In this document: one piece after another, positions 2,829-28,594 of the stretch
Layout: each line of letters starts with the position of its first letter
How positions within the stretch are numbered: the stretch's first letter is position 1
NCBI GenBank assembly: GCA_965228895.1
Contig: OZ245842.1
Span: 2,272,001-2,336,000, forward strand
Origin: Alphaproteobacteria bacterium
Lineage (GTDB): Bacteria; Pseudomonadota; Alphaproteobacteria; SP197
Direction of reading: 5' to 3'
DNA length: 64,000 bases
Notes under the pieces: model-generated
The model's database searches: none
What the model was told of the DNA's origin: nothing
The model's input: only the letters and a program-made list of their open reading frames with translations
Made by a program: the position numbers and the translations under genes

Positions 2829-3644
2829 TTAGTCGATGACGATACGCGCCTCTTGATAGCCGGCGGCCATGACACGGTAGCGCATGTCGCCCGCTTGATC
2901 GAGATCGGCATAGGGTCCCAGCCGCACGCGGTAGAACGGTAGGCCGTTGGCGACCACACGGTAGATCTGAACGTGGTCCAGCATAGCGAGCTGCCGGCCG
3001 ACCTTTTGGGCGTTATCGGCTTCGGTGAAGGCGCCGATCTGGACGTAGATGGCGCGGTCAGGCTCCTCGGAGATGAGGTCGATTGCGGCGGTTGTCACCT
3101 CAGGTTCAGGCGGCGCTTCCGGGTCCTGTGCCGCAAAGGCAGTGCCGGTATCCGGGTCGACGACCTGGACCCTCACCTGGGCCGTCCCCGCGCGCTCAAA
3201 GCCCAAGAGCTGGGCCGATCGGCGCGAGACGTCGATGATCCGGCCATAAGCGAAAGGCCCACGGTCGTTCACCTTCAGCACCAGCGAGCGGCCGTTATCC
3301 AGATTGGTGACCCGGACATAGACCGGCATCGGCAAGGTCTTGTGGGCCGCCGTCAACAGGTTCATGTCGTAGACCTCGCCGTTGGCCGTGCGCCTGCCGT
3401 GGAACGGCTCGCCATACCAGGAGGCTATGCCGACCTCGTCGTAGTACGGGTCTTCGGCGGGGTAGTACCAAGCGCCGTTGATCTGATAGGGATTGCCGAC
3501 CTTGTAGCTGCCGCCGGTATCGCTGTCGCGCTGCGCTTCCTTGCTCAGCGTCGCCAAAAGCTCTGTTTCGGCACATCCCGCAACGATCGCGGCGACAAGA
3601 AACGACGAGAAAACAAGGACAAAACCGCGATATACGCCAAACAC
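2829..3644 (-). CDS. rlpA: Septal ring lytic transglycosylase RlpA family lipoprotein with SPOR domain
   Basis: Lipobox VAGC; ASWYG..FHGRRTANGE, TAAHKTLP, VNDRGPF, RIIDVS; C-terminal YVQIGAF...YRVRLGP. Confidence 0.95.
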   Translation of the reverse strand: MFGVYRGFVLVFSSFLVAAIVAGCAETELLATLSKEAQRDSDTGGSYKVGNPYQINGAWYYPAEDPYYDEVGIASWYGEPFHGRRTANGEVYDMNLLTAAHKTLPMPVYVRVTNLDNGRSLVLKVNDRGPFAYGRIIDVSRRSAQLLGFERAGTAQVRVQVVDPDTGTAFAAQDPEAPPEPEVTTAAIDLISEEPDRAIYVQIGAFTEADNAQKVGRQLAMLDHVQIYRVVANGLPFYRVRLGPYADLDQAGDMRYRVMAAGYQEARIVID

Positions 3645-3680
3645 GCCAAGCCTGCCCGCTAGATATAGTGGTGGCGAACT

Positions 3681-4661
3681 CTAACGGCTGACGATCTCAT
3701 CGGCAAGACGCACGACTGACATGGCAAAATAGTCCGACCGGTTCCAGCGCAAGATGACCCGATAATTGCTGAAAACCAGATAGGCCGGACCGCCGTCGCC
3801 GGCCGGCATGGCAAGCGTTGTCGGTTCGTCGGCCGCGACAGCCGGTGGCGCTGCGATAAAGGTCACGCCCTCGTCCAGCCAGGCCTGCAGGGGACGTGGC
3901 GAATCGTGGCCCGAACGAGAGGCATCCATGCCGGCGGGCAACGTTACCGCTGCACCCCAAGGCTCATCCAACTCCCAGCCGTAGCTCGAGAGATAATTGG
4001 ATGCGGACGCAAACACGTCACCGCGGGTGGTCCAAATGTCGCGCCTGCCGTCCTTATCCCAGTCGACGGCGTAACCCATGAAACTGGATGGCATAAACTG
4101 GCTTTGGCCCATGGCGCCAGCCCATGAGCCAACCATTTTGTCTTTTGTTATATGGCCTTCGTCCAAAATCTTGAGAGCATGCATCAGCTCACGCCGAAAG
4201 AAGTCGCTGCGCCTTGGATCCCAGGCCAGGGTCGCAAGCGCGGCGATCACGTCGAAACCGCCGGTATAGGTGCCGAACCGAGTTTCATGCCCCCACAGCG
4301 CGATGACGGCTTCGGGATCAACGCCATAGACGTCGCTTACCGAGATGAGCAGCGGCAGATGTTCGTCGTAGTTACGCCGCGCCTCGGCAATCAGTGCCGA
4401 CGGCATGCGGCTCGCCATGTATTCGGCGAACGTGACCGTGCCTTCCGGCTGGCGCCGATCCAGCTCGATCACCCGATCGATGGGCTGAATGTCGTTGAGG
4501 GCCGCGTCGAGCGTTGCCTGGCTGACACCTTGGGCGGACGCTTCAGCGCGAACACCGTCCACGAATGTTGTCCAGTCCGGTTGCGTCTGAGCCTCTACCG
4601 GCACGACGAACAACAGCAGGACGGTTAACTGAATGAGGACGCTTTGGGCTTTTGGGCGCAT
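3681..4661 (-). CDS. mltB: Lytic murein transglycosylase (MltB family)
   Basis: WGHETRFG, GSWAGAMGQSQFMPSS, DGRRDIW; start moved to MRPKAQ (ATG 4661) after GGGAGA, giving a signal peptide. Confidence 0.9.
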   Translation of the reverse strand: MRPKAQSVLIQLTVLLLFVVPVEAQTQPDWTTFVDGVRAEASAQGVSQATLDAALNDIQPIDRVIELDRRQPEGTVTFAEYMASRMPSALIAEARRNYDEHLPLLISVSDVYGVDPEAVIALWGHETRFGTYTGGFDVIAALATLAWDPRRSDFFRRELMHALKILDEGHITKDKMVGSWAGAMGQSQFMPSSFMGYAVDWDKDGRRDIWTTRGDVFASASNYLSSYGWELDEPWGAAVTLPAGMDASRSGHDSPRPLQAWLDEGVTFIAAPPAVAADEPTTLAMPAGDGGPAYLVFSNYRVILRWNRSDYFAMSVVRLADEIVSR

Positions 4662-4755
4662 GGATGGACACCGTCTCCCTTTTGTTCGTGTGTGTGGCAC
4701 AGCCCGGCCAATCGTGCAATGGTCGCAGCAGCCAAAACGGCCGCGGCCGAAAGCC

Positions 4756-5019
4756 ATGCGCATCGATAAAAAGGACGTCAAACGTTTCGTCGTTGTTGCG
4801 GCGGGGCTCTATGTGGCCGTTGGCCTCGTCGCGCTGATTGCGCCGGCTGTTGCCTTTCCGCTCGTGATTGCGTTGACGGCGTTGCTGGCACTGGTGGTGG
4901 TGCTCGTGCTGTTCCTACGTGCCTGGCATTGGTTCATCAGCGAAAGCTTCAGCCTGATTGAAGATCGCTCGCGCGAATTGCGAGAACGGCCGCATCAACA
5001 ACGCGCCAAGCGGCGATAG
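4756..5019 (+). CDS. Small membrane protein, hypothetical
   Basis: MRIDKKDVKRF followed by two hydrophobic helices and a basic tail; fills the intergenic gap. Confidence 0.6.
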   Translation: MRIDKKDVKRFVVVAAGLYVAVGLVALIAPAVAFPLVIALTALLALVVVLVLFLRAWHWFISESFSLIEDRSRELRERPHQQRAKRR

Positions 5020-5057
5020 AACGGTTCCGCTCGTCTCGGTTTTGCGTAGCGTCGCGA

Positions 5058-5315
5058 CTATCCCTTTGGCTCGTCGTCCTCGCCTGTGTCCATGCCGCCA
5101 CCGGCACGATCGTCGTGGCCATGGTGGTGGCTGTAATAGGAGAGCCGCATCAGGCCAACGCCCAGGCCGGTGACGAAAATGACGCACAGAATAATCGCGA
5201 TCACACCGTGGATGCCCATCTCTACATCGTCGAGCGCGAGCCAGACATCGATGGCGTAGATCAAGGTCCCGCTGAGGATGATCACAAGCGCGAGAGCGAC
5301 AAGAGCGGTCTTCAT
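5058..5315 (-). CDS. Small two-TM membrane protein, hypothetical
   Basis: 85 aa; two TM segments then YYSHHHGHDD and an acidic tail. Confidence 0.7.
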   Translation of the reverse strand: MKTALVALALVIILSGTLIYAIDVWLALDDVEMGIHGVIAIILCVIFVTGLGVGLMRLSYYSHHHGHDDRAGGGMDTGEDDEPKG

Positions 5316-5402
5316 TCGTCTGCCATTCCGGTTCGGCCAGGATGGGTCGTGACGGGTTCACCAGAATCGTAGTGAGGACCGTCACAGATCGCGCGGGTGC
5401 GC

Positions 5403-5430
5403 TTGATTCCTGTGGGCAAGGTCTTAACAT
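5403..5430 (+). promoter_or_regulatory. Candidate sigma70-type promoter for the riboswitch-parA leader
   Basis: TTGATT (5403-5408) N16 TAACAT (5425-5430), about 45 nt upstream of the aptamer; overlaps a TTAAC pentamer. Confidence 0.4.
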
Positions 5431-5474
5431 TGCTTTCGTCGGCTGGAAACGCCGATATGGGCAGCCACTAACGG

Positions 5475-5572
5475 CTCCCAGATAAAGGCAAACCGGTGGA
5501 AACATCGGGACGCAAAGCCACCGGCCTTCACCTCGGTCAACGAGGGCAAGGTAGCGGGGTTACCAAAGGGAA
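5475..5572 (+). ncRNA. Cyclic di-GMP-I (GEMM-I) riboswitch aptamer
   Basis: AAAGGCAAACC-GGTG-GAAA-CATC-GGGACGCAAAGCCACCGGCCT...AAGGTAGCGGGGTTACC matches the GEMM-I consensus: P2 CCGGTG/CATCGG with GAAA tetraloop (5499-5502), GACGCAAAGC junction, P3 with CCTCG/CGAGG apical stem, 3' GGTAGCGGGGTTACC. Confidence 0.9.
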
Positions 5573-5580
5573 GTCGTACT

Positions 5581-5733
5581 ATGTGTTGTGACAAGACAAA
5601 GCCGTCTGCTGCCATCTGGAAGACCTCCGGTCTCCCCACAACCGATTTCGCCTCCCCTTGTGCCGCCGTCTTGGCGACACCGGGTTTTCTGCGCTGTCAA
5701 TCCGCTGTCGCCACGCGGGGTACTTCATGCTGA
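5581..5733 (+). CDS. Putative 50-aa leader peptide (uORF) between riboswitch and parA
   Basis: GGGAAG 7 nt before ATG 5581; open frame MCCDKTKPSAAIWKTSGLPTTDFASPCAAVLATPGFLRCQSAVATRGTSC*; overlaps parA ATG (ATGCTGA). Below ORF-track cutoff. Confidence 0.35.
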   Translation: MCCDKTKPSAAIWKTSGLPTTDFASPCAAVLATPGFLRCQSAVATRGTSC

Positions 5734-6497
5734 GCTCGATGCGTGTCCTCGTTGTCGCCTCGCAAAAAGGCGGCTCCGGCAAGACGACCTTGTCCGGTCA
5801 TCTTGGTGTCGAGGCCGAGCGCGCGGGCCACGGTCCGGTCGCGCTGATCGATACGGATCCGCAGGGCAGCCTGGCTCAGTGGTGGAACGCTCGTGAAGCG
5901 GAGACCCCGGCCTTCGTCCAGTCGAGCGGCCAGACCCTGCGCGACGATTTGATGGCCCTTAGAGAACAGGGTTTCAAACTGGTCGTCATCGACACGCCGC
6001 CCGCCGCGACGCGCGAGATTTCCGAGGTCGCCGCGTTCGCCGATCTGGTCATTCTGCCGACGCGCCCGAGCCCTCACGACTTGCGCGCCGTCGCCTCGAC
6101 GATCGAGATTTTGGAGCAGCGCGGCAAGGCCATGGTCTTCGTGCTGAACTCCGCAACGGCACGTGCGCGCATCACTGGCGAGGCCGCCATTGCGCTGTCG
6201 CAGCACGGCACGGTCGCGCCGGTCACAGTTCACCATCGCGTCAATTTCGCCTCCAGCATGATCGACGGCCGGACGGTCGCCGAGATCGACGAGGAGAGCG
6301 CGTCCGCCAAGGAGGTCTCCGAACTCTGGAGTTATCTGGCTGATCGCATCAGCCGCAAACACATGGTCGCCCTGCCCGGCGGCGTCGAGAAGGTCGAACA
6401 GCCGACACCGGCGGTCGCCCATCCTGTCGCGCCGGAAGGCCTGAGGCCGAGCCAGCCTTTTGGCCGGCGCGGACGCGACGAAATCCATCTGACTTGA
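5727..6497 (+). CDS. parA: ParA-family ATPase (short, type Ib/Soj-like, no N-terminal HTH)
   Basis: Deviant Walker A SQKGGSGKTT, IDTDPQGS, Walker B VVIDTPP; start at ATG 5727 (GGGG upstream) or 5739. Confidence 0.92.
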   Translation: MLSSMRVLVVASQKGGSGKTTLSGHLGVEAERAGHGPVALIDTDPQGSLAQWWNAREAETPAFVQSSGQTLRDDLMALREQGFKLVVIDTPPAATREISEVAAFADLVILPTRPSPHDLRAVASTIEILEQRGKAMVFVLNSATARARITGEAAIALSQHGTVAPVTVHHRVNFASSMIDGRTVAEIDEESASAKEVSELWSYLADRISRKHMVALPGGVEKVEQPTPAVAHPVAPEGLRPSQPFGRRGRDEIHLT

Positions 6498-6516
6498 TCA
6501 AGGACGATCGGGCGTC

Positions 6517-6963
6517 ATGAGCAAAGGCAAGGTAGCGGTTCTCCATAGCGGCCTGTTGGCACGCAAGGGTGAAGCACGTCCGATGGCGGTCTACGCCGCG
6601 CCGCCGGTCACAGCGCCCGAGCCGGTCGCGCCGCCGCCTGCCCCCGCGCCTGCCGCAGCTTATCCACAGCCCGCCAAGTCCGGCCACAGCACGGACACAA
6701 TAGCGCCGCAGGTTGCCGCGTCATGTCCGAACATCAAGCTGCCGCCTGAGTTCGCGCGCGATGGCAAGAAAGCCAAATCAGGCCCGCGCACCGAACTCCA
6801 CGCGCGGCTGGCAAACACGTCGCATAAGCGATTGAAGATTGCATCGGCCCGCCTTGGCCGGTCGCAGCAGGAGATTGTCTCCGCCGCGATCGACGCCTAC
6901 CTCGATTACATCGAGGGCGATGTGCTGAACGGTTGCCGATGCATGAGGAACGCCCGGGGCTAG
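6517..6963 (+). CDS. ParA-associated protein: basic N-terminal peptide, Pro/Ala linker, probable C-terminal ribbon-helix-helix
   Basis: AAGGA before ATG; N-terminal LHSGLLARKGEARP; C-terminal RTELHARL-ANTSHKRLKIASARLG-RSQQEIVSAAIDAYL fits a strand-helix-helix RHH pattern. Confidence 0.75.
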   Translation: MSKGKVAVLHSGLLARKGEARPMAVYAAPPVTAPEPVAPPPAPAPAAAYPQPAKSGHSTDTIAPQVAASCPNIKLPPEFARDGKKAKSGPRTELHARLANTSHKRLKIASARLGRSQQEIVSAAIDAYLDYIEGDVLNGCRCMRNARG

Positions 6964-7053
6964 GGACTTACGCGCTCGACCCCTTGCCCTGGCGTCGCGG
7001 GCCGGTGAGATTCCAAGCATCTCATCGGCCCGCAACTTTTTCGGACCGATGAA

Positions 7054-7944
7054 CTAGGCCGCGTGCTCCACGATGAACGCGCCGGCGCGCGCCAATGCCG
7101 CGTTGGCTTCCGGCACTTCTGGCGCCAGATGATGCCAGACATGCGGGGCGCCCTCTTCGATCTCCAGAACCGCTGTGCTGCCGGCCGCTGTCATTCCGTC
7201 GGCGAGTGAGCGCGCATCGTCCAGCAGCAGTTCGGTATCGCCGACCTGGATTAGGATCGGCGGTAAGCCTGAAAGATCGCCGTGATGGGGCGCCACATAG
7301 GGATGGCGAAGGTTGTCGCCGTTCAGATACGTCTCAACAAAAACCTCGAGTTCGCCGACGCTCAGGAAGGCGTCACGGTCGGGATCGCCGGCGCGCCACG
7401 TGCCCTCGCCTTCCATGTCGCACCACGGCGATATCGCGACACCACATGCGGGCAAAGGCAGTCCTTCGTCGCGCAAGCGCAGCATGACGGCGAACACCAG
7501 CCCGCCGCCCGCCGAATCGCCGGCAAAGGCGATCCGGCGGCTGTCGCCCATCTCCTGCACCAGGGCACGATAGGCTTCGACACAGTCATCGATGGCGGCG
7601 GGAAACAGATGCTCCGGCGCCAGCCGATACTCCGGAAAGAAGAGCCGGCAACCCGCCGCCTTTGCAAGTCTCGTGACGATCATGATGTGGCTCTTCGTCG
7701 ATCCCATCGCGTAGCCGCCACCATGAAAATAGAGGATGGCGCGATCGGGGTCGGCGTTCGGCGGGTCGAATTGCCATCCCGGCACGCCGCCCAGCGCCGT
7801 CCGGTTTGCGGTCACGCTGTCGTCGCCGGGAAACTCATCGCCCAGCTCGTCGTAGGACACCCGGCGCTCGGCCATGGTGGCGTCTTCAGGTAGCACAGCC
7901 TCGGCCAGAATCTTCTTGTAACGCTCAAGCTCAGGGCTGGGCAT
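7054..7944 (-). CDS. Alpha/beta hydrolase, HSL-family esterase
   Basis: HGGGY, YRLAPEH, GDSAGG nucleophile, ELLLDD, HVWH. Confidence 0.93.
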   Translation of the reverse strand: MPSPELERYKKILAEAVLPEDATMAERRVSYDELGDEFPGDDSVTANRTALGGVPGWQFDPPNADPDRAILYFHGGGYAMGSTKSHIMIVTRLAKAAGCRLFFPEYRLAPEHLFPAAIDDCVEAYRALVQEMGDSRRIAFAGDSAGGGLVFAVMLRLRDEGLPLPACGVAISPWCDMEGEGTWRAGDPDRDAFLSVGELEVFVETYLNGDNLRHPYVAPHHGDLSGLPPILIQVGDTELLLDDARSLADGMTAAGSTAVLEIEEGAPHVWHHLAPEVPEANAALARAGAFIVEHAA

Positions 7945-7946
7945 GG

Positions 7947-8846
7947 CTAGGCTCCCGTGTGTCGTTGAACAAAGATACCAATGCGGTCGATGGCCGCCAT
8001 GGCTTCCGGCAGCAACGGCACCGCGTGATGCCAGACGTGAAAGGCGCCCTCTTCGATCTCCAGCGTCGCGTCGACACCGGCGGCCTCGGCGTGATCGGCA
8101 AGCCTCGTGGCGTCACTGAGCAGGACTTCCAGGGTGCCGACTTGGATCAGGAGCGGCGGCAGGCCAGTAAGGTCGCCGAAGATGGGTGATGCCAGAGGAT
8201 CGCGCTGGTCAGCGCCGTTCATGTAGTCGGTGGCGAAGCTGATAAGTGCGGGCGCGTCACAAATGGGATCCGAAGCCGGATCGGCGTCACGCCAGGCGCC
8301 CCGTCCATCGAGATCGGTCCACGGAGAAATTGGAATGGCACAGGCCGGCTGTGGCAAACCTTCGTCGCGCAAGGCGAGTAGCAGGGCGACGGTCAGCCCG
8401 CCGCCGGCGGAATCGCCGGATACGGCAGTGCTCTTGGCGTCATACCCTTCATCGAGCAGCCAACGGTAGGCCGCGACCGCATCCTCGACGGCCGTCGGAA
8501 AGGGATGTTCGGGAGCAAGACGATAATCGAGGGCAAGCACCTTTGCCTTTGCTGCGCCGGACAGACGCGACGTCAGGCCGATGTGGGTCGATACGGAGCC
8601 AGAGACGTAGCCGCCGCCGTGCAGGTAGAGGAGCACACTGTCATCCCGGGCGGTGCTGGCGGTCTGCCATTGTGCGGGTACGCCGCCGGCCACCGTGTCC
8701 ACCGTTCTGACGCCTTTGGCGATGGGGAACATCCGGCCGAACTCTTCGTATTGGTCCCGGATCTCCGCTAGTGGCCGATCGGGCGGCGCCTTGGCCTGCT
8801 CATCGTAGAGCGCCGCGATGAACCGTTCCATCTGCTTGCTGACCAA
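7947..8846 (-). CDS. Alpha/beta hydrolase, HSL-family esterase
   Basis: HGGGY, YRLAPEHPFP, GDSAGG, EVLLSD, HVWH; TTG start after AGGAGG. Confidence 0.93.
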   Translation of the reverse strand: MVSKQMERFIAALYDEQAKAPPDRPLAEIRDQYEEFGRMFPIAKGVRTVDTVAGGVPAQWQTASTARDDSVLLYLHGGGYVSGSVSTHIGLTSRLSGAAKAKVLALDYRLAPEHPFPTAVEDAVAAYRWLLDEGYDAKSTAVSGDSAGGGLTVALLLALRDEGLPQPACAIPISPWTDLDGRGAWRDADPASDPICDAPALISFATDYMNGADQRDPLASPIFGDLTGLPPLLIQVGTLEVLLSDATRLADHAEAAGVDATLEIEEGAFHVWHHAVPLLPEAMAAIDRIGIFVQRHTGA

Positions 8847-8859
8847 GAATGTCCTCCTG

Positions 8860-9516
8860 CTATGCAGTGGCGCGCACCGCCATCATGGCAATGCCGGTCG
8901 CCGCATGAACGGGGTCGATCACCCTCACCCCAACGGCGCGTTCTAACATCGATCCATACGGCACCATGCCGGCGCAGCCAAGAATCACGACATCGGCGCC
9001 GCGATCCTTCAACCGCTGGGCAGCGGCGCCAAGTTCCTTTGCGGCGCGCCTTGTATCATCAAGTCCGGTTACGGCAATTCCGCACGCCTCAATACCGGCA
9101 AGTCGTGCGTCGAGGCCGAGTCCTCGAATCTGACGCAGGCCGGACCCAATGTCGTCTGCCATGTTGGTCAAAATGCCGTAGTGCTCGCCGAAATTGAGCG
9201 CCGTTGTCACACCGCCCTCACAGATCCCAATGACCGGCTTACGTGTGGTCTCGCGTGCAGAGGCCAGGCCCGGGTCGCCGAAACAGGCGATGACAAAGGC
9301 GTCGGCGCGTCTGTCTTCGCGTGCGATAAGATCGCATAGCGGACCGACAACCTGATCGGCGTGGCGCGCCGTTTCGATACCACGCGGTGCGTCATCCAGG
9401 GTTTCACAGCGAATTTCGGGTCCACCTGTGAATCGCAGGGTTTCCAGGTTGCGGTCCATGGCCGCGGTGACGGCGCGGTCACTGTTGGGGTTGATGACGA
9501 CAATCCGTCCGTGCAT
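8860..9516 (-). CDS. Asp/Glu/hydantoin racemase family protein
   Basis: Start MHGRIVVINPNS (ATG 9516, GGGAGG upstream); two catalytic Cys motifs IACFGDPG and ILGCAGM. Confidence 0.9.
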   Translation of the reverse strand: MHGRIVVINPNSDRAVTAAMDRNLETLRFTGGPEIRCETLDDAPRGIETARHADQVVGPLCDLIAREDRRADAFVIACFGDPGLASARETTRKPVIGICEGGVTTALNFGEHYGILTNMADDIGSGLRQIRGLGLDARLAGIEACGIAVTGLDDTRRAAKELGAAAQRLKDRGADVVILGCAGMVPYGSMLERAVGVRVIDPVHAATGIAMMAVRATA

Positions 9517-9603
9517 GGCGGCCTCCCCGTCCCCGGCCTTCTCGACGCGTGCCGGAGTATGCCACGATGCCCGGGCGGGAACAGCCAGGCCGAGGAGAAT
9601 GAC

Positions 9604-10545
9604 ATGGCGCGGATGATGAAGGTGGCGGCGGCACAAATGGGGCCGGTTGCGCGTGAGGATACGCGCCAGCAGGTCGTTGCCCGTCTTCTTGAGATGATGC
9701 GCGAAGCCGCCGGCTGGGGCGCCGATGTGGTCGTGTTCTCGGAACTGGCGCTGACCACGTTCTTCCCGCGTTGGGTGATCGAGGACGAGGACGAAACCGA
9801 TCGTTGGTATGAACGCGATATGCCGAGCGCGGCGACCCAGCCGCTGTTTGATGAAGCAGCCAAGCTGGGCATTGGCTTTCACCTTGGCTTCGCCGAACTG
9901 GCCTTTGACGACGACGGCACCAAACATCGTTTCAACACGTCGATCCTGGTCGACAAGGCCGGTGCCATCGTTGGCAAATTCCGCAAGGTCCACATTCCCG
10001 GACATGCCGAGGCCAAAGACCGGCCGGGTCAGCATCTGGAGAAACGCTACTTCGAGGTCGGCGACCTCGGCTTTCCGGTCTACCGCGCCTTCGGCGGCAT
10101 CATTGGCATGTGCATATGCAACGACCGGCGCTGGCCCGAGACCTGGAGGGTCATGGGATTGCAAGGCGTCGAAATGGTGTTCTGCGGCTACAACTCCCCG
10201 GTCGGCCTGGGCGACACCTTTGATCTCGACGCGCTCGAGCCGTTCCACAACCACCTGGTCTTCCAGTCAGGCTGTTATCAGAACGCGACCTGGGCGGTCG
10301 GCGTCGCCAAGTGCGGCAACGAAGAAGGTTTCAACATGATCGGCCAGAGTTGCATCGTCGCCCCGTCGGGCGAAATCGTGGCGCAATGCGGGTCGATCGA
10401 GGACGAGGTGATCGTGCACAAATGCGACCTGGATGCGGCCCGCGCCTACAAGGACGACATCTTCAATTTCGCACGGCACCGCCAGCCGCAGCACTATCGC
10501 CTGATCGTCGAACGCACCGGCGCGGAGCCGCCGCCGGAGACTTAG
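9604..10545 (+). CDS. N-carbamoyl-D-amino acid amidohydrolase (D-carbamoylase, nitrilase superfamily)
   Basis: GAGGAG RBS; Glu-Lys-Cys triad in VFSELALTTFFPRW, RKVHIPGH, MCICNDRRWPE; C-terminal FNFARHRQPQHY. Confidence 0.92.
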   Translation: MARMMKVAAAQMGPVAREDTRQQVVARLLEMMREAAGWGADVVVFSELALTTFFPRWVIEDEDETDRWYERDMPSAATQPLFDEAAKLGIGFHLGFAELAFDDDGTKHRFNTSILVDKAGAIVGKFRKVHIPGHAEAKDRPGQHLEKRYFEVGDLGFPVYRAFGGIIGMCICNDRRWPETWRVMGLQGVEMVFCGYNSPVGLGDTFDLDALEPFHNHLVFQSGCYQNATWAVGVAKCGNEEGFNMIGQSCIVAPSGEIVAQCGSIEDEVIVHKCDLDAARAYKDDIFNFARHRQPQHYRLIVERTGAEPPPET

Positions 10546-28504: not shown

Positions 28505-28594
28505 GGACGGGTGGCCGAGTGGTTGAAGGCAGCGGTCTTGAAAACCGCCAGGCGTGCAAGCGTCTCGTGGGTTCGAATCCCACCCCGTCCGCCA
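28505..28594 (+). tRNA. tRNA-Ser (anticodon TGA)
   Basis: Acceptor GGACGGG/CCCGTCC-GCCA; anticodon arm GCGGT-CTTGAAA-ACCGC; long variable arm; T-loop GGTTCGAATCC; encoded CCA. Confidence 0.98.

Follow-up and report, generated by a model that had tools for sequence, protein, structure and literature searches.

The DNA analysed here is a 64,000-nucleotide (nt) stretch of an alphaproteobacterial genome, referred to as the window, and coordinates are window positions unless a genome or locus label (G... or L...) is given. It contains a two-gene operon encoding a small ParA-like ATPase and a ribbon-helix-helix (RHH) protein, and upstream of the operon, on the same strand, an RNA aptamer of the cyclic di-GMP-I (c-di-GMP-I, or GEMM-I) class (Table 1). 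An initial annotation of the window had proposed that a c-di-GMP riboswitch leads an orphan ParA and its RHH partner. The evidence assembled below, all of it computational, indicates that the aptamer is very probably a true c-di-GMP-I riboswitch that acts in cis on the ParA-RHH operon, and the link between riboswitch and ParA is conserved in cis across many genomes, well beyond chance.

Table 1. Features of the aptamer-ParA-RHH locus in window coordinates
Feature	Position	Strand	Basis
Palindrome AGTGAGGACCGTCACA, one mismatch to TGTGA-N6-TCACA	5371..5386	+	Alignment of aptamer-ParA upstream regions
Promoter-like TTGATT (5403-5408), 16-nt spacer, TAACAT (5425-5430)	5403..5430	+	Sequence reading; conserved TTG block in alignment
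CUCCC, 5′ strand of outer closing helix, complementary to GGGA of the Shine-Dalgarno-like box	5475..5479	+	Duplex energy
c-di-GMP-I (GEMM-I) aptamer	5477..5568	+	RF01051 77.8 bits, RF03167 68.5 bits, covariation
Shine-Dalgarno-like AAGGGAAG, overlapping the last closing-helix pair (g5568)	5566..5573	+	Conserved purine-rich tail
Leader open reading frame, 50 codons, starting 7 nt after the GGGAAG box; TGA (5731-5733) overlaps the ParA start (ATGCTGA)	5581..5733	+	
Long hairpin in the leader 3′ half, pairing the G-rich box (GCGGGG, 5715-5720) before the ParA ATG	5659..5725	+	Minimum free energy folds
ParA-like ATPase, 256 aa, alternative start at 5739	5727..6497	+	Pfam, NCBIfam, PDB profile
RHH partner, 148 aa: N-terminal GLLARKGEARP, Pro/Ala-rich linker, RHH (about residues 92-135), terminal CxC	6517..6963	+	
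Terminator-like hairpin, 15 pairs, then a T run; operon end	6997..7043	+	

The aptamer belongs to the c-di-GMP-I class

A direct search of the genome with the Rfam model for c-di-GMP-I (RF01051) matched positions 5477-5567 on the plus strand at 77.8 bits, against a gathering cut-off of 35. The initial annotation had placed a GEMM-I aptamer on the sense strand and proposed this covariance check, and both are borne out by a score that lies well above the threshold rather than under it. When the 64-kb window was scanned with cmscan, two Rfam matches exceeded their thresholds: a transfer RNA (tRNA) and RF03167 (c-di-GMP-I-GGC; 68.5 bits, E 4.3e-14, 5478-5568 on the plus strand, cut-off 59). RF01051 is hidden in this output because the clan rule keeps the model with the lower E-value, which is slightly lower for RF03167; the higher bit score of the two belongs to RF01051. 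The window RNA has the architecture of RF01051, with two hairpins, an outer closing helix and a GNRA-type tetraloop (GAAA, 5499-5502) on the first hairpin. Among 31 distinct related aptamers, standard pairs filled 95.0% of the pair cells, compared with 29-45% when the partners were slid, and nine of the 22 pairs had changed on both sides, in an alignment that was fitted to the covariance model and therefore leans towards it.

In the accessible part of PMC4744006, the ligand contacts of the Vc2 riboswitch are given as G20, A47 and C92. On our own reading of the model alignment, these columns would correspond to g5487, the unpaired junction G before the first paired GC (AAAGGCAAACC), to a5514, the first junction base after CGC (CGCAAAG), and to c5563, the unpaired C preceding the closing helix (GTTACC). 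These letters are identical across the six aptamer copies that were aligned first, all six of which also keep the first G of GGCAA. At the A47-like position the RF03167 consensus has G (CGCGAA), and from the family name and this consensus we took that letter as the hallmark of the GGC variant. Both the window RNA and each of its 35 aligned relatives carry A there, and the GGC variant was rejected for the window aptamer on this ground, although the RF03167 score itself exceeds its cut-off. At the G20-like position, GEMM-I variants that sense cyclic GMP-AMP (cGAMP) carry A in place of G; the window RNA and its 35 aligned relatives all keep G, and the 3′,3′-cGAMP type was likewise rejected. Judged by these positions, the window RNA is a canonical, ordinary c-di-GMP-I member with contacts of the G/A/C type, as the initial annotation had held in preferring c-di-GMP to an A20 cGAMP type. 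The high score of RF03167 on these RNAs may reflect shared ancestry, as its consensus flanks resemble them. In the parts of the literature available to us, the GGC model is named only as an Rfam entry (PMC9943018, PMC12452182), and the accessible part of PMC5473149 holds nothing on GGC.

Aptamer and ParA occur together within the family

The host genome contains three above-threshold aptamers, all of which pass the RF03167 cut-off. The second (L002, G000:C1:3311118-3312558) precedes a ParA paralog with 56% identity, the same layout, an MLSSMRV start and the C-terminal tail. The partner gene of the window is the only one in the whole genome and the L002 paralog has none behind it, so that the two ParAs may share one RHH protein or the L002 paralog may work alone.

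A survey of the host genome and 60 relatives was carried out, the 61 genomes comprising 32 others of the same family and 28 single-genome families of the class. Aptamers were found in 18 of them: the host, 15 of the 32 others in the family and two of the 28 single-genome families. Among 31 oriented aptamer loci, 15 have ParA no more than 610 nt downstream, as the first or second open reading frame (ORF) in 13 cases. This ParA is present in 13 of the 33 family genomes, every one of which has aptamers, and the 17 aptamer-free family genomes yielded no such ParA at E ≤ 1e-30. By coordinates, the aptamer lies directly upstream of 16 of the 20 ParA places in the family, one of them a remnant in G014. 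Three family genomes have aptamers without ParA. In G028 a contig end falls inside the leader ORF, in G031 only an 86-codon leader-like ORF follows the aptamer, and in G005 the ParA operon looks as if it had been deleted. Within one genus the distribution is patchy, with three of 23 genomes positive.

Several of these loci have features of their own. The G014 remnant (G014:C1:999684-1000426) carries three stop codons, and the aptamer 210 nt ahead of it is intact. The G005 aptamer (L101) leads straight into the C-terminal portion of a hydrolase-like ORF similar to window ORF 9361-10545. The third aptamer of the host genome (L003, G000:C1:1548220-1548298, minus strand) leads a 99-aa protein with two transmembrane segments and no Pfam or NCBIfam match, and the same 99-aa family (27-93% identity) also stands behind aptamers at L104-L108, L111 and L113. 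Tandem units were seen at L103/L115 (G006), L112/L098 (G011) and G004:C3:63023-63647, where an aptamer and a 113-aa membrane protein are followed by an aptamer and ParA, the second aptamer lying 520-600 nt later and all elements pointing the same way; between the 113-aa protein and the 99-aa family there is a weak relationship (E 0.003).

The linkage extends to other alphaproteobacterial lineages

At least 547 relatives of this ParA exist in the species-representative collection, and homolog-locus counts refer to the best 80 (L008-L087). Using a covariance model built from six copies, an aptamer was found upstream of ParA in five of these loci, leaving 75 without, and an Rfam scan of 20 of the 80 loci identified three with the aptamer, all among the same five. 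A further scan, with a DNA pattern spanning the aptamer core and the Walker-A codons, matched 31 species genomes; in 26 of them the covariance model also scored (65-100 bits), and ParA starts immediately after the aptamer's GGAG-type box. These 26 species belong mostly to other alphaproteobacterial lineages, and two of them seemingly to the window's own family. Of the 26, 25 have a complete ParA, 23 an FGRR-like tail and 24 a downstream LLARKG-type partner motif (both motifs are described below). The remaining five matches were dropped as ordinary Soj-ParB operons (three Ochrobactrum/Brucella-group records, a Rhizobiales isolate and a betaproteobacterial metagenome-assembled genome, MAG). The scan upstream of homologous parA-RHH pairs that the initial annotation had suggested has thus produced the aptamer at both sets of loci. 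The ParA that it described as an orphan is not a lone oddity: its ParA-RHH family is widespread in Alphaproteobacteria and mostly lacks the riboswitch.

In a FastTree phylogeny of 110 ParA cores, the aptamer state requires six changes, compared with about 30 for shuffled labels, and none of 500 shuffles was as low; FastTree supports are local only, and two long branches (L002 and L158) meet. A mostly sphingomonad clade of 59 rows is without the aptamer, while 35 of the other 51 rows have it, a fraction that is biased because 20 tree rows were chosen for having the aptamer. The only conserved neighbour, by a noisy ORF clustering, is a Sel1-like repeat protein found at 59 mostly sphingomonad loci and absent from the window. 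The ParA core of L140, a MAG labelled Flavobacteriaceae, is identical to that of the alphaproteobacterial MAG L156, and the Flavobacteriaceae assignment is probably a binning error.

The operon encodes a ParF-like ATPase and an RHH partner

The ParA has a deviant Walker A motif (KGGSGKT) and matches Pfam AAA_31, CbiA, MipZ and VirC1, with the ATPase core beginning at residue 5. Across 23 ParA sequences, K14, G15, G16, G18, K19, T20, T21, D42, D44 and D89 are invariant. The features of type Ib ATPases are therefore found, namely the deviant Walker A with its signature lysine, the Walker A′ and B aspartates and no N-terminal DNA-binding domain, and a small RHH protein is encoded next to it, as in type Ib systems. 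The closest solved structures are ParF/ParA of TP228 (4dzz, 5u1g; E 3.3e-15). An FG(R/K/C)(R/K) motif, referred to as FGRR-like, occurs in the last 30 residues of ParA at 79 of the 80 homolog loci. FGRR follows a variable linker at the C-terminus (window 6437-6497), by which ParA length ranges from about 232 to 396 aa. A canonical ParB is encoded far from the operon in the same genome.

The partner was identified as an RHH protein by profile and by fold, and the small ParA with a downstream RHH partner described in the initial annotation is accordingly recovered. A profile of 30 homologs searched against the PDB gave 11 matches, ten of them to RHH domains (SvtR, ParG, PutA, CopG, omega), including ParG (1p94) at E 0.0045. 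An AlphaFold2 model had block means of the predicted local distance difference test of 85-96 over residues 91-148, and the best Foldseek matches were the RHH domains of PutA, ParG, CopG and omega, with TM-scores to the target of up to 0.92 and a root-mean-square deviation of 0.9 Å; the E-values were only 0.09-0.8 because the domain is so small. No Pfam family, including ParG (PF09274), matched the partner at E up to 0.01, and in a protein-atlas search the nearest clusters were unnamed, with RHH/ParG-type families appearing only at 0.90-0.91, as a lead only.

In most loci ParA is followed, at -8 to +40 nt, by the start of an ORF of 80 codons or more, and an [LIM][LIM][AVSM]RKG motif, referred to as LLARKG-type, is encoded no more than 700 nt downstream of ParA at 79 of the 80 homolog loci. 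In the 30-sequence alignment, partner residues R16, K17, G18, A20 and P22 are invariant. The N-terminal tail of ParG contains an arginine finger and stimulates its ATPase, and by analogy the N-terminal R-K peptide of the partner is a candidate ATPase-stimulating tail. One complex-prediction job (two copies of ParA 1-215, two ATP and partner 1-40) scored 0.56 compared with 0.41 for the control and was not used as evidence. The partner ends in CxC (GCRCM, window 6925-6963), an ending that is common to the non-sphingomonad branch and absent from the sphingomonad branch.

A Shine-Dalgarno box adjoins the closing helix

In all 31 tails examined, the aptamer 3′ end reads ...GCGG(G/A)(G/A/C)..(A/G)(C/U)C, a purine-rich box follows it (mostly CGAAGGGAG-like, that is GGAG/GGGA-like) and a candidate start codon lies 8-16 nt past the RF01051 end. 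This Shine-Dalgarno (SD) box begins 3-4 nt after the C92-like base, directly behind the closing helix, and the helix would therefore cover part of the box when formed. Just 5′ of the aptamer is a pyrimidine stretch, CUCCC in the window and CUCCUCG in many relatives. In place of pair counting on the outer closing helix, the duplex energy between this 5′ flank and the tail was compared with that of random 13-mers. The window duplex, at -9.0 kcal/mol against a control mean of -3.3, beats 99% of random 13-mers. Over 27 unique instances the mean was -6.7 compared with -4.8 kcal/mol for random 13-mers, and 18 of the 27 fell in the best fifth of their own controls, which is moderate support for the pairing.

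ParA is placed behind this box in one of two ways. In the direct arrangement, found at seven loci, ParA itself starts behind the box, with its ATG 12-13 nt past the RF01051 end in L095, L096, L098 and L115 and 6-8 nt past the GGAG box in L019, L030 and L035, so close behind the aptamer that no room is left for another promoter. In leader-type loci, including the window, an ORF of 22-55 codons starts 7-9 nt after the box, and its stop codon overlaps the ParA start in nine out of nine cases. The overlap takes the form ATGnTGA or ATGnTAA in the window, two congeners, the paralog L002, L090 and L091, and TGATG in L089, L099 and L100. The aptamer-to-parA distance, put at about 155 nt in the initial annotation, measures 158 nt to the ParA ATG; the spacing is as it was given, but the leader is not a plain untranslated one, since it holds the 50-codon ORF.

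Leader peptides of different genera show no relationship to one another. Within the window's genus, 8-19 bases (5-13%) of the 153-nt leader vary without codon periodicity, whereas ParA differs at 70-81 of 256 third positions (about 30%), and this lower divergence without periodicity suggests that the leader RNA itself is constrained. Minimum free energy (MFE) folds of the leader 3′ half pair ParA's own G-rich box in seven out of seven loci; in the window, where GCGGGG sits 6 nt before the ParA ATG, the leader contains an inverted repeat (5672-5686/5699-5713) and the fold has z = -2.1, within a range of -3.0 to +0.1 across the seven loci that gives weak support. In one sister genus, the leader ORFs of L088, L090, L091 and L093 share the sequence QxLFLPSY, which the window leader peptide lacks. 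Variation within the L-F-L-P-S-Y codons of these four ORFs is synonymous at five third positions and non-synonymous at one site, which is the mark of a translated peptide, and the QxLFLPSY peptide may be functional, perhaps ribosome-arresting.

A CRP-like box precedes a putative promoter

A transcript start near 5437 is inferred from the promoter-like elements upstream of the aptamer. A strict sigma-70 scan of 5200-7200 returned no promoter-like site, a scan that is uninformative for this organism. The palindrome is centred about 58-61 nt before the inferred start, with 16 nt between it and TTGATT, and resembles TGTGA-N6-TCACA, which we take to be the consensus of CRP-type regulators. In an alignment of the regions upstream of 15 aptamer-ParA loci from four genus groups, GTG is the sole invariant block and lies inside (T)GTGA-N6-TCAC(A).

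Boxes with no more than two mismatches to TGTGA-N6-TCACA, which occur in 4.4% of 5000 random windows, were found 80-105 nt before the aptamer in 26 of 28 loci of the window's family that encode ParA, the two-transmembrane protein, the 113-aa protein or a 90-aa protein. By class, the box was present at 11/11 leader-type and 3/4 direct ParA loci, at 8/8 two-transmembrane, 2/2 113-aa and 2/3 90-aa protein loci, at 0/3 other loci and, outside the family, at 3/23 of the loci from the pattern scan. There are 13 HTH_Crp_2 matches in the genome, and two of the five best (genome positions 1,359,076 and 1,993,358) have an RE(T/S)xx(R/K) recognition helix, which marks CRP-type regulators of TGTGA-N6-TCACA sites. 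The palindrome is therefore a candidate binding site for a CRP-type regulator, and the distribution of the box suggests that in the window's family the aptamer travels with a shared promoter cassette read by such a regulator.

The operon is flanked by genes on the opposite strand. The gene that follows it (7054-7944) is convergent and is one of two adjacent paralogous alpha/beta-hydrolase genes (the other at 7947-8846, minus strand); the first matches Abhydrolase_3 (E 4.9e-56) and the second is alike by eye only. Upstream of the unit, 2829-4781 (minus strand) encodes a lytic transglycosylase (SLT_2, E 1.7e-102) and a 271-aa ORF that is RlpA/SPOR-like by eye, both cell-wall remodelling genes. 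The tRNA of the window (28505-28591, 61.3 bits) is 87 nt long and has a long variable arm.

A proposed mechanism and its alternatives

We propose that 5371-7043 is one regulatory unit consisting of the CRP-like box, promoter, aptamer, SD box, leader ORF, ParA, RHH partner and terminator. Binding of c-di-GMP would lock the closing helix, whose outer part would pair the SD box with the upstream CUCCC, and ribosomes could then not start. At direct loci the masked SD would block ParA itself, whereas in the window it would block the leader ORF. Translation of this ORF would be required to melt the hairpin that covers the ParA start and to bring ribosomes to the overlapping ATG, and might also shield the leader from Rho. 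The ParA-RHH pair would thus be produced when c-di-GMP is low and switched off when it is high. By homology, it would work as a ParF/ParG-like (type Ib) machine in which the RHH partner binds DNA and its N-terminal R-K peptide stimulates the ATPase; "positioning system" is likewise a label by homology. Taken as a whole, with the OFF direction and the coupling through the leader included, this scheme is at most rather likely. Given that control exists, an OFF switch at high c-di-GMP is somewhat favoured, and the direction of control is the weakest step of the mechanism.

A number of findings weigh against this scheme. Four of the 20 ParA paralogs in the family, in two genomes, are without an aptamer. 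The pairing of the 5′ flank with the SD box is weak or absent in about a third of the instances and reaches the best 5% of controls in only five of 27, being no better than random at L002, L102, L103, L114 and L115; covariation of the outer helix was not countable, since the model-fitted alignment puts the 5′ flank out of register where the joiner varies in length. The leader hairpins are not significantly stable in five of seven loci, the leader of L021 consists of 82 nt without an overlapping ORF, and every leader-type locus has its own G-rich box before ParA, which means that coupling through the leader may not be obligatory. On the protein side, ParA scored 169.2 bits against NF041546 (ParA_partition), under the cut-off of 180, while aligning to positions 1-202 of the 203 in the profile, and is filed as a related branch of this type Ib family, a near miss rather than a member. 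Type Ib operons have a repeat array (centromere or operator) beside them, and in 4700-7400, the region searched, there were no iteron-like repeats, only two-copy, chance-like repeats and a single tandem repeat, a 15-nt GCCCGCC run. The two proteins represent an uncharacterised branch of type Ib (ParF/ParG-like) systems that lies close to the threshold.

The main rival keeps the same unit with the opposite sign, in that c-di-GMP would free the SD box or prevent premature termination, and ParA-RHH would be induced at high c-di-GMP, in sessile cells. The third of instances that lack a convincing 5′-flank/SD pairing would suit this possibility, as would the MFE fold of the full leader, in which GGGAAG pairs with a downstream CCUCCCC and which could be a ligand-free OFF state. 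There is also a terminator-like hairpin, although a weak one, followed by TTTTCT at 5670-5684, and an ON model by terminator competition has been proposed for many GEMM members (PMC1950547, visible part). However, the closing helix is unable to form without covering part of the SD box. The 5670-5684 site has five pairs, and such sites are equally frequent in shuffles (two found, 1.7 expected), while loci with ParA right behind the aptamer leave no space for a terminator. We regard induction by c-di-GMP as unlikely, but as the alternative to be taken most seriously.

It is more doubtful still that ParA-RHH is a leftover partition cassette of a plasmid or integrative element without a host role, with the riboswitch limiting its cost. 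The nearest curated family is the plasmid-type ParA_partition and the nearest structures are those of plasmid TP228, and the patchy occurrence in one genus, the pseudogene and the apparent deletion are in keeping with such an origin. Against it, the local G+C at the operon (0.60-0.67) is like that of the surroundings, and no integrase, transposase or repeat array was seen near the operon. Moreover, the genes are chromosomal and occur throughout the 59-row sphingomonad clade and in several other orders, with FGRR and LLARKG each conserved at 79 of the 80 homolog loci. The chromosomal spread, the kept motifs and the ordinary G+C together argue for long vertical maintenance.

We consider it very improbable that the aptamer governs only the leader ORF or a small RNA, with parA expressed from its own promoter and ribosome-binding box inside 5570-5726. 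The 158 nt between aptamer and ParA and the GCGGGG box before its ATG would allow this, but they are answered by the direct arrangement at seven loci and at the 26 scan loci, by the stop-start overlap at all nine leader loci, by the low divergence of the leader in the window's genus and by the decayed ParA that still lies behind an aptamer in G014. Equally improbable is an RNA sensing another ligand, 3′,3′-cGAMP or that of the GGC class, since the lower E-value of RF03167 and its match to all three genome aptamers are outweighed by the A and the G at the two discriminating positions of the window and its 35 relatives and by the higher bit score of RF01051.

Comparison with known systems

The Vc2 riboswitch of Vibrio cholerae, upstream of VC1722/tfoY, is a translational OFF switch. 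The window aptamer shares its class, its three ligand-contact nucleotides (PMC4744006) and its place as a 5′ cis element before a coding region. It differs in that its host is an alphaproteobacterium rather than a gammaproteobacterium and its target a ParA-RHH operon rather than a regulator. Its SD box, moreover, forms part of the closing helix's 3′ strand, and in the window the switch would act by way of a leader ORF coupled to the target gene. Riboswitch leaders such as that of mgtA/mgtL also hold a short translated ORF that influences expression of the gene behind it. The window has such a short ORF that would influence the gene downstream, but it begins after the aptamer, at an SD box that the aptamer would mask, and its stop falls on the target's start codon, an arrangement that points to simple coupling by termination and reinitiation.

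Among partition systems, ParF-ParG of TP228 is similar in having a small ParA without an N-terminal DNA-binding domain, in the order of ATPase and RHH gene, and in a partner with a flexible N-terminus and a C-terminal RHH (1p94 is among the best profile and fold matches). By contrast, the window pair is chromosomal, conserved across orders and without an iteron or centromere array near the operon; its ParA has a C-terminal extension ending in FGRR, its partner carries LLARKG and lacks a Pfam ParG match, and its expression would be under a riboswitch instead of, or besides, autorepression by the RHH protein. VirC1-VirC2 of Agrobacterium Ti plasmids also sets a ParA-like ATPase beside an RHH protein, VirC2, and Pfam VirC1 matches ParA residues 5-176 (E 7.8e-6). 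The match is weak, however (25.8 bits against a cut-off of 24 in Pfam, 25.5 against 313 in NCBIfam), and there are no transfer genes nearby. CdbA of Myxococcus xanthus is an RHH nucleoid protein that binds c-di-GMP, and so resembles the window in tying this messenger to an RHH DNA-binding protein (6sbx ranked 48 in the partner fold search). In CdbA c-di-GMP binds the protein, whereas in the window the signal would act on the messenger RNA; nothing suggests that the window partner binds c-di-GMP, and the likeness in fold is generic for RHH.

The initial annotation knew of no such pairing from the literature, and our searches, which left the supplementary gene lists of the GEMM and variant papers outside their scope, likewise found no paper linking a c-di-GMP riboswitch to ParA. 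ParA-like genes were formerly often annotated as cobyrinic acid a,c-diamide synthase and could occur in such lists under that name. In the visible part of the GEMM gene-family table there is no ParA, and "partitioning" appears only under the 6C motif (PMC1950547); the accessible part of a study of a Methylophaga strain gives seven c-di-GMP riboswitch targets, none of them a ParA (PMC12530212). We have thus not found in print a c-di-GMP riboswitch on a partition-type ATPase operon in several alphaproteobacterial lineages, with a masked SD box and, in some genera, a coupled leader ORF.

Implications of a probable c-di-GMP control of a partition-type machine

The pairing links a lifestyle signal to a partition-type machine. 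Riboswitches for c-di-GMP are mainly known before genes for motility, adhesion, secretion and signalling, and the influence of c-di-GMP on the alphaproteobacterial cell cycle is generally ascribed to protein receptors. In the present loci an RNA receptor stands directly on a partition-type ATPase operon, and does so repeatedly, in several lineages mostly known from metagenomes. This raises the question of whether a ParA/RHH machine is switched together with the motile-sessile decision, and of what it moves. The analysis also singles out an uncharacterised ParA-RHH family, marked by the FGRR tail and the LLARKG peptide and conserved across Sphingomonadales and other orders, and the window would be a compact natural example of riboswitch control relayed by a leader ORF coupled to its target.

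With a CRP-like box in common, these loci may form one small regulon on which two nucleotide messengers act together. We put forward, as a tentative and on present evidence doubtful extension, that in the window's family box, promoter, aptamer and masked SD form a reusable two-messenger gate placed before ParA-RHH and families of small membrane proteins. In such a gate transcription would depend on a CRP-type regulator that responds to a cyclic mononucleotide, while c-di-GMP would be able to prevent translation; the ParF/ParG-like machine would be built only at low c-di-GMP, during dispersal or in motile cells, and the QxLFLPSY peptides would add a further input in some genera. If this were true, alphaproteobacteria of these lineages would have a lifestyle-gated second DNA-organising or segregation system.

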